DNA from: Escherichia coli
GTDB taxonomy: Bacteria > Pseudomonadota > Gammaproteobacteria > Enterobacterales > Enterobacteriaceae
DNA: 64,000 bases
Assembly (NCBI RefSeq): GCF_003334315.1
Contig: NZ_QOWR01000010.1
Direction: 5' to 3' (one strand)
The notes under the pieces were generated by a model, which made no database searches, was not told the origin of the DNA, and saw nothing but the letters and a program-made list of their open reading frames with translations. Shown one piece after another: positions 11,904 through 58,650 of this stretch (positions within the stretch are counted from its first letter, which is position 1; the number at the start of each line of letters is the position of its first letter). Made by a program: the position numbers and the translations under genes.

Positions 11904-12233
11904 TCATCGCCCATACTCATCTTCCATTCTCCGCTCTTCATCCTCCAGTTGCCGACGCTCCTGATCAAGCTGGCGCTGGCGATCGTCCAGCTGCCTGCGG
12001 CGATCTTCAAACTGGCGGCGGCGGTCGTCATATTGTCTGCGCCGATCGTCGCTCACTTCACGCTGCCAGCCGTCGTCGCGCGAATCTTCATAGTCTCGCC
12101 CACGGTCAGGGTTATAAGCGTCATTAATCGCCTGCTGAATATTGCCAATGGTGTCGTCGATAATATCGGCCTGGGCCGGAACGGTGGACAGCGTGAGCAG
12201 GGTGAATAAAAGAAATAGCGGAAAGCGTTTCAT
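11904..12233 (-). CDS. yjdP: Small secreted protein with Arg/Asp/Glu/Gln-rich periodic repeats
   Basis: 109 aa with signal peptide MKRFPLFLLFTLLTLSTVPAQA, then DDRRRQYDDRRRQFEDRRRQLDDRQRQLDQERRQLEDEERR. Confidence 0.8.
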   Translation of the reverse strand: MKRFPLFLLFTLLTLSTVPAQADIIDDTIGNIQQAINDAYNPDRGRDYEDSRDDGWQREVSDDRRRQYDDRRRQFEDRRRQLDDRQRQLDQERRQLEDEERRMEDEYGR

Positions 12234-12301
12234 TAGCCAACCTCAAAAAGAAACTCTATCCACATTAATCATTACTCATCCATGCAAGTAGTGGATGAAT
12301 C

Positions 12302-12751
12302 TCAATTTCTCCGCTGCTCTATTGCCGTAATCGCCTCCACGCGTTGTTGATGACGACCGCCTTCGTACTGTGCGCCCAGCCACGCATCCACAATCATTTT
12401 TGCCAGTTCGAGGCCAACCACTCGTGAACCAAAAGCCAGCACGTTGGTGTCGTTATGCTGCCGCGAAAGTTGCGCGGAATAAGGTTCGCTACAGACGACC
12501 GCGCGAATTCCGGCAAACTTGTTCGCCGCTATCGAAATACCGACGCCAGTACCACAAATCAAAATCCCGCCATCAACCTCTCCGCCAGCAACAGCCAGTG
12601 CGACTTGACTGGCGTAATGCGGATAATCAGTACGCTCTGACGACCAGGTTCCTTTATCAATCACTTCAACGCCACGCTCAACTAAATGTGCCACTATTTC
12701 ATGTTTTAAAATGAAACCGACATGATCACAGCCAAATGCAATCTTTTTCAT
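12302..12751 (-). CDS. rpiB: Ribose-5-phosphate isomerase B / allose-6-phosphate isomerase
   Basis: 149 aa MKKIAFGCDHVGFILKHEIVAHLVERGVEV..., RpiB/LacAB family. Confidence 0.95.
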   Translation of the reverse strand: MKKIAFGCDHVGFILKHEIVAHLVERGVEVIDKGTWSSERTDYPHYASQVALAVAGGEVDGGILICGTGVGISIAANKFAGIRAVVCSEPYSAQLSRQHNDTNVLAFGSRVVGLELAKMIVDAWLGAQYEGGRHQQRVEAITAIEQRRN

Positions 12752-13109
12752 TCATCTTCCCCGCCCGTGCAAAACTTCACAATTAAAAAACATTTGTGAT
12801 GTAAATGAATTAAAAACACCCAAAATCGATGAATTACGCCTTCCTGATCTGTTTTACAGAGTTACATCTGACAGCGCAATAGCGTTAAAGACACTCACCA
12901 TCCAGCAACATCTATCATCTAAAAAACCAGAAAAACAAATAACATCATGTTTTTAAAGTGATTGAATGAAATAAAATTTTAAGCCACTCTCCATTGTTCA
13001 CAACAAAACAAACTTTATAAATTTTATTTTTTTGTGAAGTCGCCGGCATCTTTTCTGTTCTTGCTGTGGTGATATAGTGGCGTCTTCAATTCAAGGACAA
13101 GAGAACGTG

Positions 13110-14000
13110 ATGAGCCAGTCAGAGTTTGATTCAGCGCTTCCGAACGGTATAGGGTTAGCGCCTTACCTGCGAATGAAGCAGGAAGGAATGACAGAAAATG
13201 AAAGCCGCATCGTGGAGTGGTTACTCAAACCCGGTAACCTGAGTTGTGCACCCGCAATTAAAGATGTCGCAGAAGCTCTGGCGGTATCTGAAGCGATGAT
13301 AGTTAAGGTATCAAAGCTGCTGGGGTTTAGCGGCTTTCGTAACTTACGCAGTGCGCTGGAAGATTATTTTTCTCAGTCAGAACAGGTATTGCCTTCCGAG
13401 TTGGCTTTTGATGAAGCGCCGCAGGATGTGGTGAATAAGGTATTTAACATCACTTTACGCACCATTATGGAAGGTCAATCGATCGTCAACGTTGATGAGA
13501 TCCACCGTGCCGCCCGCTTTTTCTATCAGGCCAGACAGCGGGATTTGTACGGTGCCGGAGGATCAAATGCTATCTGTGCTGATATACAGCACAAGTTCTT
13601 GCGTATTGGCGTACGCTGTCAGGCCTATCCGGACGCTCACATCATGATGATGTCCGCTTCGTTGTTACAGGAAGGAGATGTTGTGCTGGTAGTGACCCAT
13701 TCCGGGCGAACCAGTGATGTAAAAGCGGCCGTAGAACTGGCAAAAAAGAACGGGGCAAAGATTATTTGTATAACCCATAGCTACCATTCACCAATAGCGA
13801 AACTGGCCGATTATATTATTTGCTCACCAGCCCCGGAAACGCCGTTATTAGGTCGTAATGCCTCGGCAAGAATATTACAACTAACTTTGCTGGACGCTTT
13901 TTTTGTCTCTGTCGCCCAGCTCAACATTGAACAAGCTAATATTAATATGCAAAAAACCGGCGCAATTGTTGATTTCTTCTCACCAGGCGCGCTGAAATAA
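13110..14000 (+). CDS. rpiR: RpiR-family regulator (HTH plus SIS domain) of rpiB and the als operon
   Basis: Start at the ATG giving MSQSEFDSALPNGIGLAPYLR... (296 aa). The ORF track opens at 13077. Confidence 0.85.
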   Translation: MSQSEFDSALPNGIGLAPYLRMKQEGMTENESRIVEWLLKPGNLSCAPAIKDVAEALAVSEAMIVKVSKLLGFSGFRNLRSALEDYFSQSEQVLPSELAFDEAPQDVVNKVFNITLRTIMEGQSIVNVDEIHRAARFFYQARQRDLYGAGGSNAICADIQHKFLRIGVRCQAYPDAHIMMMSASLLQEGDVVLVVTHSGRTSDVKAAVELAKKNGAKIICITHSYHSPIAKLADYIICSPAPETPLLGRNASARILQLTLLDAFFVSVAQLNIEQANINMQKTGAIVDFFSPGALK

Positions 14001-14058
14001 GAAAAAGGTAATTCCGCCATCGCGGAGTTACCTGTCCCCTTACCGTGAGAACATTATT

Positions 14059-14994
14059 ATGAATAAATATCTGAAATATTTCAGCGGCACACTCGTGGGC
14101 TTAATGTTGTCAACCAGCGCTTTTGCTGCCGCCGAATATGCTGTCGTATTGAAAACACTCTCCAACCCATTTTGGGTAGATATGAAAAAAGGCATTGAAG
14201 ATGAAGCAAAAACACTGGGCGTCAGCGTTGATATTTTTGCCTCTCCTTCAGAAGGCGATTTTCAATCTCAATTGCAGTTATTTGAAGATCTCAGTAATAA
14301 AAATTACAAAGGTATCGCCTTCGCTCCATTATCCTCAGTGAATTTGGTCATGCCTGTCGCCCGCGCATGGAAAAAAGGCATTTATCTGGTTAATCTCGAT
14401 GAAAAAATCGACATGGATAATCTGAAAAAAGCTGGCGGCAATGTGGAAGGTTTTGTCACCACCGATAACGTTGCTGTCGGGGCGAAAGGCGCGTCGTTCA
14501 TTATTGACAAATTGGGCGCTGAAGGTGGTGAAGTCGCAATCATTGAGGGTAAAGCCGGTAACGCCTCCGGTGAAGCGCGTCGTAATGGTGCCACCGAAGC
14601 CTTCAAAAAAGCAAGCCAGATCAAGCTTGTCGCCAGCCAGCCCGCCGACTGGGACCGCATTAAAGCACTGGATGTCGCCACTAACGTGTTGCAACGTAAT
14701 CCGAATATTAAAGCGATCTATTGCGCGAATGACACGATGGCAATGGGTGTTGCTCAGGCAGTCGCAAACGCCGGAAAAACGGGCAAAATATTGGTCGTCG
14801 GTACAGATGGAATTCCGGAAGCCCGCAAAATGGTGGAAGCCGGACAAATGACCGCGACGGTTGCCCAGAACCCGGCAGATATTGGCGCAACGGGTCTGAA
14901 GCTGATGGTTGACGCTGAGAAATCCGGCAAGGTTATTCCGCTGGATAAAGCACCGGAATTTAAACTGGTCGATTCAATCCTGGTCACTCAATAA
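14059..14994 (+). CDS. alsB: D-allose ABC transporter periplasmic binding protein
   Basis: 311 aa with signal peptide and sugar-binding-protein fold. Confidence 0.95.
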   Translation: MNKYLKYFSGTLVGLMLSTSAFAAAEYAVVLKTLSNPFWVDMKKGIEDEAKTLGVSVDIFASPSEGDFQSQLQLFEDLSNKNYKGIAFAPLSSVNLVMPVARAWKKGIYLVNLDEKIDMDNLKKAGGNVEGFVTTDNVAVGAKGASFIIDKLGAEGGEVAIIEGKAGNASGEARRNGATEAFKKASQIKLVASQPADWDRIKALDVATNVLQRNPNIKAIYCANDTMAMGVAQAVANAGKTGKILVVGTDGIPEARKMVEAGQMTATVAQNPADIGATGLKLMVDAEKSGKVIPLDKAPEFKLVDSILVTQ

Positions 14995-15004
14995 AACTGA
15001 ATGA

Positions 15005-15090
15005 TGCCGGATGATGATGCTAATGAAGTGTCTTATCCGGCCAACAAAATAACCTGAACGTAGACCTGATAAACGTAGCCATCAGGCAAT
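15005..15090. repeat. REP-like palindromic element between alsB and alsA
   Basis: gccggatgatgatgctaatgaagtgtcttatccggcc followed by gacctgataaacgtagccatcaggc. Confidence 0.6.
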
Positions 15091-15120
15091 AATACGATAT
15101 TTCGTGCAGAGAGGTTATTT

Positions 15121-16653
15121 ATGGCCACGCCATATATATCGATGGCGGGGATCGGCAAGTCCTTTGGTCCGGTTCACGCATTAAAGTCGGTTAATTTAAC
15201 GGTTTATCCTGGTGAAATACATGCATTACTAGGAGAAAATGGCGCGGGTAAATCCACGCTAATGAAGGTTTTATCCGGAATACATGAGCCGACCAAAGGC
15301 ACCATTACTATTAATAACATTAACTATAACAAGCTGGATCATAAATTAGCGGCACAACTCGGTATCGGGATTATTTATCAGGAACTCAGCGTTATTGATG
15401 AATTAACCGTACTGGAAAATTTATATATTGGTCGTCATCTGACGAAAAAAATCTGTGGCGTCAATATTATCGACTGGCGAGAAATGCGTGTCCGCGCCGC
15501 CATGATGTTATTACGCGTGGGCTTGAAAGTTGATTTAGATGAGAAAGTGGCGAATTTATCTATCAGCCACAAGCAGATGCTGGAAATTGCCAAAACGCTG
15601 ATGCTCGACGCCAAAGTCATCATCATGGATGAACCCACCTCCTCACTCACCAATAAAGAGGTGGACTATCTGTTTCTGATCATGAATCAGTTGCGTAAAG
15701 AGGGTACGGCCATCGTCTATATCTCGCATAAGTTGGCGGAAATTCGCCGTATTTGCGACCGCTATACGGTGATGAAAGACGGCAGCAGCGTTTGCAGCGG
15801 CATGGTGAGCGATGTGTCAAATGACGATATCGTCCGTCTGATGGTAGGCCGCGAATTGCAAAACCGTTTTAACGCGATGAAGGAGAATGTCAGCAACCTT
15901 GTGCACGAAACGGTTTTTGAGGTGCGCAACGTCACCAGCCGTGACAGAAAAAAGGTCCGGGATATCTCATTTAGCGTCTGCCGGGGAGAAATATTAGGCT
16001 TTGCCGGGTTGGTCGGTTCCGGACGTACTGAACTGATGAATTGTCTGTTTGGCGTTGATAAACGCGCTGGCGGAGAAATCCGTCTTAATGGCAAAGATAT
16101 CTCTCCACGTTCACCCCTGGATGCCGTGAAAAAAGGGATGGCTTACATCACTGAAAGCCGCCGGGATAACGGTTTTTTCCCCAACTTTTCCATCGCTCAG
16201 AACATGGCGATCAGCCGCAGTCTGAAAGACGGCGGCTATAAAGGCGCGATGGGCTTGTTTCATGAAGTTGACGAGCAACGTACCGCTGAAAATCAACGCG
16301 AACTGCTGGCGCTGAAATGTCATTCGGTAAACCAGAATATCACCGAACTCTCCGGGGGAAATCAGCAGAAAGTCCTGATCTCCAAATGGCTGTGCTGTTG
16401 CCCGGAAGTGATTATTTTCGATGAACCTACCCGCGGCATCGACGTTGGCGCGAAAGCCGAAATTTACAAAGTGATGCGCCAACTGGCGGACGACGGAAAA
16501 GTCATCCTGATGGTGTCATCTGAACTACCTGAAATTATCACCGTCTGCGACCGCATCGCCGTGTTCTGCGAAGGACGACTGACGCAAATCCTGACGAATC
16601 GCGATGACATGAGCGAAGAGGAGATTATGGCATGGGCTTTACCACAAGAGTAA
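15121..16653 (+). CDS. alsA: D-allose ABC transporter ATP-binding protein with duplicated ABC domains
   Basis: 510 aa with two Walker A motifs (GENGAGKST and GLVGSGRTE). Confidence 0.95.
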   Translation: MATPYISMAGIGKSFGPVHALKSVNLTVYPGEIHALLGENGAGKSTLMKVLSGIHEPTKGTITINNINYNKLDHKLAAQLGIGIIYQELSVIDELTVLENLYIGRHLTKKICGVNIIDWREMRVRAAMMLLRVGLKVDLDEKVANLSISHKQMLEIAKTLMLDAKVIIMDEPTSSLTNKEVDYLFLIMNQLRKEGTAIVYISHKLAEIRRICDRYTVMKDGSSVCSGMVSDVSNDDIVRLMVGRELQNRFNAMKENVSNLVHETVFEVRNVTSRDRKKVRDISFSVCRGEILGFAGLVGSGRTELMNCLFGVDKRAGGEIRLNGKDISPRSPLDAVKKGMAYITESRRDNGFFPNFSIAQNMAISRSLKDGGYKGAMGLFHEVDEQRTAENQRELLALKCHSVNQNITELSGGNQQKVLISKWLCCCPEVIIFDEPTRGIDVGAKAEIYKVMRQLADDGKVILMVSSELPEIITVCDRIAVFCEGRLTQILTNRDDMSEEEIMAWALPQE

Positions 16654-17612
16654 AAAGCGAAGCGAGCGAGAAGAAACCGTTCAACTTTGCGCTGTTCTGG
16701 GATAAATACGGCACCTTTTTTATCCTGGCGATCATCGTCGCCATTTTTGGTTCGCTGTCGCCAGAATATTTTCTGACCACCAATAATATTACCCAGATTT
16801 TTGTTCAAAGCTCCGTGACGGTATTGATCGGCATGGGCGAGTTTTTCGCTATCCTGGTCGCTGGTATCGACCTCTCGGTTGGCGCGATTCTGGCGCTTTC
16901 CGGTATGGTGACCGCCAAACTGATGTTGGCAGGTGTTGACCCGTTTCTCGCAGCGATGATTGGCGGTGTACTGGTTGGCGGCGCACTGGGGGCGATCAAC
17001 GGCTGCCTGGTCAACTGGACGGGGCTACACCCGTTCATTATCACCCTTGGCACCAACGCGATTTTCCGTGGGATCACGCTGGTGATCTCTGATGCCAACT
17101 CGGTATACGGCTTCTCATTTGACTTCGTGAACTTCTTTGCCGCCAGCGTAATTGGGATACCTGTCCCCGTTATCTTCTCGCTAATTGTCGCGCTCATCCT
17201 TTGGTTTCTGACAACGCGTATGCGGCTCGGGCGCAACATCTACGCACTAGGCGGCAACAAAAACTCGGCGTTCTATTCCGGGATTGACGTGAAATTCCAC
17301 ATCCTGGTGGTGTTTATCATCTCCGGTGTTTGTGCAGGTCTGGCAGGCGTCGTCTCAACTGCACGACTCGGTGCCGCAGAACCGCTTGCCGGTATGGGTT
17401 TTGAAACCTATGCCATTGCCAGCGCCATCATTGGCGGCACCAGTTTCTTCGGCGGCAAGGGGCGCATTTTCTCTGTGGTGATTGGCGGGTTGATCATCGG
17501 CACCATCAACAACGGTCTGAATATTTTGCAGGTACAAACCTATTACCAACTGGTGGTGATGGGCGGATTAATTATCGCGGCTGTCGCCCTTGACCGTCTT
17601 ATCAGTAAGTAA
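16632..17612 (+). CDS. alsC: D-allose ABC transporter permease
   Basis: 326 aa polytopic membrane protein. 22-nt overlap with alsA. Confidence 0.95.
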   Translation: MGFTTRVKSEASEKKPFNFALFWDKYGTFFILAIIVAIFGSLSPEYFLTTNNITQIFVQSSVTVLIGMGEFFAILVAGIDLSVGAILALSGMVTAKLMLAGVDPFLAAMIGGVLVGGALGAINGCLVNWTGLHPFIITLGTNAIFRGITLVISDANSVYGFSFDFVNFFAASVIGIPVPVIFSLIVALILWFLTTRMRLGRNIYALGGNKNSAFYSGIDVKFHILVVFIISGVCAGLAGVVSTARLGAAEPLAGMGFETYAIASAIIGGTSFFGGKGRIFSVVIGGLIIGTINNGLNILQVQTYYQLVVMGGLIIAAVALDRLISK

Positions 17613-17622
17613 GGAATTGAAC

Positions 17623-19231
<1,609 letters not shown>

Positions 19232-50293: not shown

Positions 50294-50722
50294 TGCTATC
50301 AATTTCCTGCCTGTTTATACCCGGCCATTGTAAGGTGAAAACCCTGGGTACCGACGTCTTTAGATAAATCTTACGGTATAAATAGCACTTTTGCCTGATT
50401 TGAAATTGATACCTTTCTAATCGTCACCTGGATGAAAATAATTCATTGATATTCAAAATTAATTTCCTACAGGAATGCAGAGGCGGCGGGAAGATATGCC
50501 CTTAATGCCACTGAAAAACCACATAATCTGTACAGCAATAAAAGTCACGGCCTAATATGGCTAACAAACAATCAATTGTGATATAGTTCACAAAATTAAT
50601 GAAACAAACAGAGTGTTTCATTTTTGTGTTCTGCAAGCCCCGCGATAGCCAGAGTGTACCACGCCTCCCGTGAACAACGCCGCGCTGTCCAGGGCATCGG
50701 CTCTTTTCAGAGGAATTGTTTG

Positions 50723-55636: not shown

Positions 55637-56629
<993 letters not shown>

Positions 56630-56751
56630 TTAATGAACTTAATGATACAGCATTACAAAAACAATCGAAGTTTATAAAGATGATTTCTGATTGACCAGCC
56701 CCCTACCCTACAATGGTGATTAATTTTATTACTCGCGATGGAGATGATGAT

Positions 56752-56955
56752 ATGAATATATCATATGTGAATAGCAACAAAACGACATCTTTACCTGTTG
56801 AGCTAGATGCACTAAATAATAAAGATATCTCTTATGCCAAAGATTTCTTTTTATACATAGAAACACAGTTAAAAATTGCAAAAGATTTTTTAGACCTGGA
56901 GAAGAAGTATCAAGTTCTATTGCAAGTAAAGTTTTTCACGCATTTATTGATTTAG
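56752..56955 (+). CDS. yjbS: Small hypothetical protein (67 aa) in an AT-rich islet
   Basis: ATG at 56752 (MNISYVNSNKTTSLPVELDALNNKDISYAKDFFLYIETQLKIAKDFLDLEKKYQVLLQVKFFTHLLI). Low GC. Coding status is uncertain. Confidence 0.45.
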   Translation: MNISYVNSNKTTSLPVELDALNNKDISYAKDFFLYIETQLKIAKDFLDLEKKYQVLLQVKFFTHLLI

Positions 56956-57456
56956 TTAACAAAATCAGGGGTAAGAAAGACTTTATGTATACTTGCACGC
57001 TTTGCTGTTTTGCCGAGGAGGTTAAAGGTGATTATTCTCATTACAGGACCTTTTTATTTGATATTGGTAATCAATATAAGGTTAAACTTACACAAAGCGG
57101 AAAAAAGAGTTCTCTTTAACATTAGAATTTAACGATACTATAATTGAATCTCAGAAAGTCACAGGCAATAAGGCAAAGCATATTCTTGAGGATATAGAAA
57201 TATTCTATCGTAACAAACCCGATACTTATTATTAAATTTAATAATGGTTAGATGTGCAGAAATTATTACTCCACCCAAAAAAACAGGATAAGGAATTCCA
57301 GATAATTGGGATAAACTTAACAATAAAAGAACTAACAACGTTTATTATCTCTCACGTAGAACGATGGCATCAAAAAAATCATCTATAAAGAAAGAGTGAA
57401 AGCGACGACAGTTTAATTTCACTGCAGGCTGGGTAGCTCCAGCCTGCTTTCCTGCA

Positions 57457-58650
57457 TTACATCACCGCAGCAAACGCCTTTGCCACACGTTGTACATTTG
57501 CCGTATTTAACCCGGCGACACACATGCGACCGCTGGCGATGAGATAGACACCAAATTCTTCACGTAGTCGGTCAACCTGAGCGGCACTTAAACCGGTATA
57601 ACTGAACATGCCGCGCTGATTAAGCAGATAATCGAAATTGCGTTCTGGCATCTCTGTGCTTAATACCTTCACCAATTCCTGACGCATTGCCAGAATGCGA
57701 GTACGCATCTCTTCTACTTCCGCCAGCCAGCTGGCTTTCAATGCCTCGTCATTCAGCACTGCAGCCACCACCTGCGCACCAAAATTCGGCGGGCTGGAGT
57801 AGTTGCGGCGAACTGTTGCTTTCAATTGCCCCAGTACGCGGCCAGCGGCTTCGGCATCTTCACACATAACAGAAAGTCCGCCGACGCGCTCGCCGTAAAG
57901 GGAGAAAATTTTCGAGAACGAATTGCTCACCAGAGCGGGTAATCCAGCGCTGGCAATGGCGCGAATAGCGTAGGCATCCTCTTCCATACCGGCACCAAAT
58001 CCTTGATAGGCAATATCGAGGAATGGAATAAGCTCGCGGGCTTTGAGAATTTCAATCACCGCATCCCACTGATCATTAGTGAGATCGGCACCCGTTGGGT
58101 TGTGGCAACATGGATGCAGCAACACAATACTGCGGGCAGGTAATGTTTTCAGCGTCGCCAACAGGTCATTAAAGCGCACGCCGTTAGTCGCTTCGTCATA
58201 CCAGGGGTAAGTACTCACTTCGAATCCAGCCCCGGCGAATATTGCTACGTGGTTTTCCCAGGTAGGATCGCTGACCCAGACGCCTGATTCCGGGAAGTAG
58301 CGTTTCAGGAAATCCGCGCCCACTTTCAATGCCCCGGAGCCGCCAAGGGTTTGAATGGTTGCTACGCGCTGTTGTTTCAGTACCGGATGGTCCGCACCAA
58401 ACAGCAGCGGCGCAATGGCATGGCGATAGCTGTTAAGCCCTTCCATCGGTAAATAAAGCGAAGCGCCATGAGGCTGCGCATTCAGGCGCGCTTCCGCCTC
58501 CGCCACGGCTTGCAGTTGTGGAATAATTCCGTCTTCGTTGTAGTACAGACCGATACTTAAATTCACTTTGTCGCTGCGAGGGTCTTCTTTAAAACGCTCC
58601 ATAAGCGTAAGAATCGGGTCGCCAGCGTAGGCGTCAACTTTTTGAAACAC
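57457..58650 (-). CDS. tyrB: Aromatic-amino-acid aminotransferase
   Basis: 397 aa beginning [24 protein letters not shown] with a GTG start at 58648-58650. PLP-lysine motif [14 protein letters not shown]. Confidence 0.95.

Follow-up and report, generated by a model that had tools for sequence, protein, structure and literature searches.

Candidate AlsR operators in the divergent rpiB–alsR control region of Escherichia coli

Proteins of the RpiR family bind inverted repeats, sometimes long-spaced ones, as dimers or tetramers. In E. coli the murR-murQP locus places the gene of such a repressor (HTH_6 plus SIS domain) divergently from a sugar-phosphate catabolic gene. MurR is autoregulated and is released by a sugar-phosphate-type effector, and it has been proposed to form a tetramer that bridges two adjacent sites, 17 bp apart and spanning about 47 bp, over the -35 and -10 elements. 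The Pseudomonas regulators RccR and HexR recognize short inverted arms with a sequence-neutral spacer between them. RccR, whose effector is KDPG, is a tetramer and accepts inverted repeats with both short and long spacers; in the RccR probe the arms TGTAGT...ACTACA are separated by about 14 bp (the paper says 16) and lie ~20 bp apart from centre to centre. For NanR of Streptococcus pneumoniae, an activator, a single dimer occupies an 18-bp palindrome with abutting halves (TCTGAAAGT.ACTTTTAGA), and this is the only DNA complex structure that we found for the family. A further point of reference is given by the lac-type promoters, where a sugar-responsive specific repressor and activation by CRP-cAMP meet on the same short region.

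For the allose locus of E. coli K-12 the control region is already known, as are the repressor that acts on it and the dependence on CRP, and the spacer is an ordinary divergent promoter region. Genomic SELEX with purified RpiR (Shimada et al. 2018) yielded a single high peak genome-wide in K-12, located inside the rpiB/rpiR spacer; the regulon was given as rpiB plus rpiR-alsBACE and the effectors as allose and ribose, while the exact operator bases for RpiR are not stated (PMC5934670). The rpiR-alsBACE/rpiB spacer is also among the targets in a CRP genomic SELEX table, with the box CGTGCAAAACTTCACA (PMC3105977 supplement). Mutations in rpiR/alsR derepress rpiB and als, according to genetic work as cited in later papers. 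The later literature describes an allose-induced operon alsRBACE(K) that is transcribed from the alsR promoter, and induction of als/rpiB has been reported for allose and ribose. Sorensen and Hove-Jensen are said to have mapped the 5' ends of both units by primer extension in 1996. In the papers that we consulted no AlsR operator sequence is given, and two genome-wide transcription-start tables contain neither rpiB nor alsR. What is new here is a map of operators and promoters, for which we infer a pair of 29-bp repeats and a CRP-like box that overlaps one of their arms. Knowledge of the control region is unchanged in its fundamentals by this map; the addition is a concrete and testable AlsR operator model.

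We analyzed the locus within a contiguous stretch of 64 kb of E. coli DNA, referred to as the window. According to the RefSeq annotation the gene order is yjdP-rpiB followed by the divergent alsR-alsBACEK, which matches K-12-like genomes gene for gene. A megablast search with positions 12200-14100 returned a match in 4990 of 5426 complete E. coli genomes, and the identity to K-12-type strains over this part was 99.1%. The repressor AlsR (RpiR) was assigned to the equivalog NF040776 (NCBIfam, 488 bits vs a cut-off of 400) and is composed of an N-terminal HTH_6 domain (residues 15-90, E = 1.3e-26) and a C-terminal SIS domain (residues 138-266, E = 5.8e-34; both Pfam). Its closest solved relatives are RccR, Vibrio NanR, MurR (represented by its SIS domain) and pneumococcal NanR, which form dimers or tetramers; the nearest solved structure is RccR (8ju9/8k3b, E = 2.5e-27). 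The alsB gene begins at 14059 and its product belongs to the AlsB equivalog NF007254 (NCBIfam). Upstream of alsR we noted an in-frame GTG at 13077, which differs from the annotated start and lies inside a conserved promoter block.

The initial annotation had described a 358-bp low-GC region between divergent rpiB and rpiR, and both its borders and its composition proved to be exact (Table 1). The GC content of the spacer compares with a window mean of 0.528, and 3% of all 358-bp segments are equally AT-rich, at three places; the only other stretches at this level (358-bp GC <= 0.349) are 42504-43822 and 56290-57483. Within the spacer we obtained no Rfam match at E <= 1, and the open reading frames found there were only unconserved ones of 21-34 aa.

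Table 1. Features of the rpiB–alsR region, with positions in the window
Feature	Position	Strand	Basis
rpiB (alsI), allose-6-phosphate / ribose-5-phosphate isomerase B, 149 aa	12302..12751	-	ORF, RefSeq annotation, TIGR01120 255.7 bits
Divergent control region, AT-rich, 358 bp, GC 0.349	12752..13109	.	ORF positions, GC scan
CRP-like box CGTGCAAAACTTCACA, 2 mismatches to TGTGA-N6-TCACA	12766..12781	+	Sequence match; same box in CRP SELEX table (PMC3105977)
O_rpiB, predicted AlsR operator, ACTTCACAA-N11-TTGTGATGT	12774..12802	.	Inverted repeat I4, islands a + b, dyad score 25.9
Island a, ACTTCACAA	12774-82	.	Alignment
Island b, TTGTGATGT	12794-802	.	Alignment
Island c, TTTTACAG, consensus TTCTACAC	12852-59	.	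Alignment
Island d, consensus ATTTCACAAATCAA, degenerate in E. coli as CTGACAGCGCAA	12866-80	.	Alignment
Half-site e, TGTTCACAA, consensus ACTTCACAA	12995..13003	+	Alignment, 42-bp palindrome I1/I3
O_alsR, predicted main AlsR operator, ACTTTATAA-N11-TTGTGAAGT	13012..13040	.	Islands f + g, dyad score 28.4
Island f, ACTTTATAA	13012-20	.	Alignment
Island g, TTGTGAAGT	13032-40	.	Alignment
Putative CRP site TGTGAAGTCGCCGGCA, 3 mismatches	13033..13048	+	Sequence match; left half = promoter-proximal arm of O_alsR
GCAT(A/C)TTT	13046-54	.	Conserved in alignment
Nearly invariant 23-bp block, TGTGGTGATATAGTGGCGTCTTC / TGTGGTGATATAGTGnCGTCTTC	13065..13087	+	Alignment
Extended -10 TGaTATAGT of the alsR(BACE) promoter: TG 13070-71, TATAGT 13073-78	13070-13078	+	Conserved block
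alsR (rpiR), RpiR/MurR-family repressor, 296 aa, leads alsRBACE	13110..14000	+	RefSeq annotation, family scans
alsR-alsB gap, 58 bp	14001..14058	+	No operator-like repeat, no plus-strand terminator-like site

With AlsR as query we collected 34 Enterobacterales loci in which rpiB is divergent from alsR-alsB; together with the window these gave 35 spacers, and one Pasteurellaceae locus was added. The sampled genera comprise Escherichia, Citrobacter, Klebsiella, Raoultella, Enterobacter, Lelliottia, Cedecea, Kosakonia, Pantoea, Brenneria, Shimwellia and others. Of the 34 other Enterobacterales loci, 33 have a spacer of 348-373 bp; the exception is a Shimwellia locus (L031) with 329 bp, counted from an uncertain alsR start. 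The identity of AlsR across genera (L002-L037) is 88-96%, with two outliers near 80% (L031 and L035); AlsB reaches 88-96% as well (81% in L031), and RpiB is lower, at 75-86% when two Escherichia loci are set aside.

In a MAFFT alignment of the spacers we observed that the middle varies freely and that only a few islands are conserved, two dyads ranking high among them (islands a to g in Table 1). A single element with the consensus AACTTCACAAAA recurs as islands a, b, e, f and g. Half-site e and the central element f make up a second dyad in most genera, which is weak in E. coli (dyad score 10.1). Islands c and d may represent an auxiliary half-site pair or a weak minus-strand rpiB promoter, TTGnnn-17-TAGAAC. 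The half-site model gave them no support as AlsR half-sites in the window, and as a promoter they miss the final T of the -10 element.

According to the initial annotation no operator could be seen by eye in this region. This view is superseded, as a repeat finder and the comparative footprint led independently to the same candidate operator, ACTTYAYRA-N11-TTGTGAWKT, which is present in two copies in the spacer, each of them a 29-bp inverted repeat. The copy named O_rpiB is located 23 bp upstream of the rpiB ATG; most of the remaining genera have N12 between its arms in place of the N11 seen in Escherichia, Citrobacter, Pantoea, Brenneria/Affinibrenneria and Shimwellia. In O_alsR all 35 spacers keep N11 without exception. 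The right end of this repeat lies 32 bp before the conserved extended -10 element, and TATAGT follows TGTGAAGT at a distance of 40 bp in 35/35 spacers. We consider it probable that the two repeats are the AlsR operators. The conserved repeats agree with the proposal, made in the same annotation, that RpiR represses both rpiB and the allose operon from operators in the spacer, as do the SELEX peak and the published regulon (PMC5934670); the resolution of the SELEX-chip data is too coarse to separate O_rpiB from O_alsR. It is from the sequence that we infer AlsR contacts at these exact bases, the promoter positions and a competition between AlsR and CRP.

For a better evaluation of the repeats we analyzed how specific they are to the spacer. 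The exact 9-mer ACTTCACAA has only two copies on either strand of the window, both within the spacer and in opposite orientation. We further scanned the window with a dyad model, a two-arm weight matrix built from the Enterobacterales sites. The scores of these sites are therefore circular, and the spacers behind them are phylogenetically related. The two best scores were 28.4 for O_alsR and 25.9 for O_rpiB, and the next best (10.1) was also found in the spacer; outside the spacer no score of 10 or more was observed in the window. The maximum dyad score in 50 block-shuffled windows was 18.2. Extending the scan to 625 kb of fetched loci, we found that scores of 15 or more were confined to rpiB-alsR spacers, apart from a single further site; no such dyad adjoins any of the 41 non-orthologous RpiR-family genes in these 625 kb.

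As the model scores on its own sites are partly circular, independent instances are the useful tests. The further site belongs to Histophilus somni (L033:4890-4918, ACTTTACAA-N11-TTGTGAAGT), was outside the model-building set and reached a score of 29.0; it lies between alsR (57% identity) and alsB. A motif-first scan of metagenomes returned 80 loci, 16 of them als loci, a share that is to be expected since the pattern holds ~35 bits and the database is huge. Among the loci returned is a metagenome contig (L088:2888-2916) on which the 29-bp repeat has the gene of an AlsR equivalog (58.7% identity, 438 bits) on one side and, on the other, a sugar ABC transporter of a different kind. Judging from this arrangement, AlsR and the predicted operator-CRP-promoter module are reused here for another transporter. 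The repeat is thus present with AlsR orthologues in differing gene contexts, and it is AlsR, rather than rpiB or alsB, that it accompanies. The transporter binding protein encoded on this contig (L088:101-3869) is RhaS/LsrB-like and takes the place of AlsB.

The nearly invariant block upstream of alsR contains an extended -10 element, from which we predict a transcription start at about 13084-13086. The -35 region of this promoter is poor, as expected for an activator-dependent promoter. With a start 5-7 nt after TATAGT, the centre of the putative CRP site at 13033-13048 would fall at about -42.5 to -44.5, compared with the canonical -41.5. The module recurs in H. somni and L088 with its -10 element at 37 bp, and the CRP-like box at the homologous position (TGTGAAGTTGATCACT and TGTGAAGTTGATCGCT, respectively) is near-consensus in both, with its centre at -41.5 if the start is 7 nt after the -10. 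Matches with as many mismatches as the two boxes of the spacer are no more frequent in the window than by chance (197 vs 198 expected). The window has only one perfect CRP consensus core with 0 mismatches in 64 kb, TGTGATATAGTTCACA at 50577-50592. At 13045 the window carries a G>A difference to K-12, by which the right half of the CRP-like box becomes CAGCA, as in other genera. A generic sigma-70 scan showed no enrichment either, with 2 sites vs 3.0 expected.

These boxes raise the question whether the TGTGA/TCACA elements are sites of CRP or of another global regulator, with AlsR binding elsewhere, at islands c/d or at 13065-13087. CRP does bind the spacer in SELEX (PMC3105977), the box CGTGCAAAACTTCACA listed there overlaps arm a, and the right arm of O_alsR opens a CRP-like box that is close to consensus in H. 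somni and L088; moreover, the block 13065-13087 is conserved far beyond the needs of a -10 element. However, the arms read TCACA...N13...TGTGA, the reverse of a CRP site, with a spacing unlike the N6 of CRP. The left arm ACTTTAYRA is invariant and yet has no CRP-like partner, while the SELEX-listed box is unconserved outside Escherichia in its left half. It is also the complete 29-bp unit that accompanies AlsR orthologues into other gene contexts. We therefore regard this explanation as unlikely.

A second alternative is that the islands are mainly core promoter elements (-35/-10, UP elements and start regions) without a dedicated 29-bp operator, and that they resemble each other simply because promoter sequence is AT-rich. 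The arms of O_rpiB, taken on the rpiB strand, indeed read ATCACA-15/16-TAAAGT, a -35/-10-like pair, the island at 13065-87 clearly contains a -10 element, and AT-rich DNA yields many promoter-like matches. But the second element of the pair is TGAAGT in E. coli, a poor -10, and two features are left unexplained: the same 9-bp arms in inverted orientation at both spacer ends, and the fact that three lineages have a complete repeat at 37-40 bp upstream of the -10. Promoter elements within the islands would in any case be compatible with operators at the same place, as the proposed MurR sites overlap the -35 and -10. As a replacement for the operators this explanation appears quite improbable to us. 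That the AT-richness marks horizontally acquired, H-NS-silenced DNA, with low basal rpiB/als expression caused by nucleoid proteins, appears highly improbable to us: the spacer GC of 0.35, the accessory nature of the als locus (about 1595 of the 4990 matching complete E. coli genomes are without it) and the identity of AlsR across genera (88-96%, two outliers near 80%) while the spacer middle varies would fit, but rpiR/alsR mutations derepress rpiB and als, specific conserved repeats exist, and H-NS would add to AlsR control instead of replacing it.

With the two 29-bp repeats as the probable AlsR operators, the spacer would serve as a shared control region for the leftward rpiB and the rightward alsRBACE, both repressed by AlsR/RpiR, with CRP acting on the region as well. 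In the absence of inducer AlsR would sit on O_alsR and O_rpiB. Bound to O_alsR, the repressor would cover the CRP box and the upstream contacts of RNA polymerase, so that alsRBACE, including its own gene, is repressed; the arm TTGTGAAGT coincides with the TGTGA half of the CRP-like box, and bound AlsR would therefore exclude CRP and polymerase. O_rpiB is only 23 bp away from the start codon of rpiB, so it probably overlaps the promoter of this gene or sits just downstream of it, and AlsR bound there would block initiation or early elongation. The inducer, allose or a derivative and under some conditions ribose, would bind the SIS domain and release AlsR, after which CRP-cAMP would activate.

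The arms of both repeats face outward (ACTTCACAA...TTGTGAAGT), ~20 bp apart from centre to centre; this geometry is the opposite of that in the solved pneumococcal NanR site and in the RccR sites and counts against the operator assignment. The centres of O_rpiB and O_alsR are separated by 238 bp, about 22.7 helical turns. Across species the inter-operator distances cluster at 229-233 and 238-245 bp, but any period from 10 to 13 bp accounts for them equally well and the species share ancestry, so that the phasing does not speak for or against looping. It is conceivable, if rather doubtful, that one AlsR tetramer binds O_rpiB and O_alsR together and loops the AT-rich spacer, so that both divergent promoters are shut and TTGTGAAGT is contested with CRP. 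If true, outward 9-bp arms two helical turns apart would be a geometry undescribed for the RpiR family.

Compared with the described systems, the locus is similar to murR-murQP in its layout, with an HTH_6 plus SIS repressor gene divergent from a sugar-phosphate catabolic gene, and in a repressor that would likewise be autoregulated and released by a sugar-phosphate-type effector. It differs in the arrangement of sites: instead of two closely adjacent ones we predict that each promoter has a 29-bp unit of its own, with the two 238 bp apart and accompanied by further half-sites. With RccR/HexR the AlsR candidates share short inverted arms of hexamer-to-nonamer length and a sequence-neutral spacer, and the centre-to-centre distance in the RccR probe equals that of the AlsR repeats. 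However, the predicted AlsR arms have the opposite relative orientation, and the effectors of AlsR are allose or ribose derivatives. The halves of the pneumococcal NanR site resemble the AlsR arms TTGTGAAGT and ACTTTATAA, but in the candidate AlsR repeats they are swapped and have 11 bp between them. The combination of a specific sugar-responsive repressor with CRP-cAMP is shared with lac-type promoters, in contrast to which an AlsR arm and a CRP half-site are predicted to share bases and the repressor gene comes first in its own operon. The operator model would be useful for regulon annotation, for the design of allose/allulose biosensors and for understanding DNA recognition in the RpiR family.

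The initial annotation had also expected a motif shared between the spacer and the region upstream of alsB and had named its absence as grounds for giving up the control-region reading. We found no such motif in the 58-bp alsR-alsB gap, nor in the alsR-alsB gaps of the 34 other Enterobacterales loci, among them gaps of 130-290 bp. This does not refute the reading as a control region; a shared motif is the wrong expectation for E. coli, because the operon is transcribed from the alsR promoter in the spacer. In the Pasteurellaceae-type loci the idea does hold: there alsR has no divergent rpiB, and the repeat is located between alsR and the transporter genes.

We also compared the window with other E. 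coli strains. Of the 358 spacer positions, 10 (2.8%) are different in K-12 MG1655 (L079); for 12200-14100 as a whole the share is 0.9%, roughly a third of this. None of these 10 differences affects the 36 operator-arm bases, but only about 1 would be expected there by chance, so the result is not significant. The als locus is an accessory region that is polymorphic for presence and absence. In the genomes without it, the 5' part of rpiB is missing along with the spacer and alsRBACEK (window approx. 12440-19231), and yjdP is followed by a 318-nt rpiB remnant and by yjcS (L080). Strain ET670 is the only one that is 100% identical over 12200-14100; in this strain IS5 splits alsR (L081:2158-3341, window ~13856), and derepression of rpiB and the als genes is expected.

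Finally, we examined the rpiB leader RNA. The E. coli leader (window 12752-12846) has no stem and folds no better than shuffled sequences (z = +0.73), and RNAalifold gave no consensus structure for the rpiB leader over all 28 sequences. In 13 loci of the Enterobacter/Lelliottia/Cedecea/Kosakonia type (L014, L016-L020, L024, L025, L028, L030, L034, L036 and L037) we observed a long-range stem of 7-11 bp on the rpiB-sense strand between islands c and a, formed by alignment columns 11-21 with 67-77. The stem shows compensatory changes (CCCGG/CCGGG, CTCGA/TCGAG and CGCGA/TCGCG), and 69.5% of its cells are paired vs 38-44% in slid controls. G.U pairs outnumber A.C by 10 to 3 in the rpiB sense, and the fold z-scores are -4.0 and -3.2. 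For the genera of these 13 loci this suggests a structured rpiB 5' leader and a transcription start near island c.
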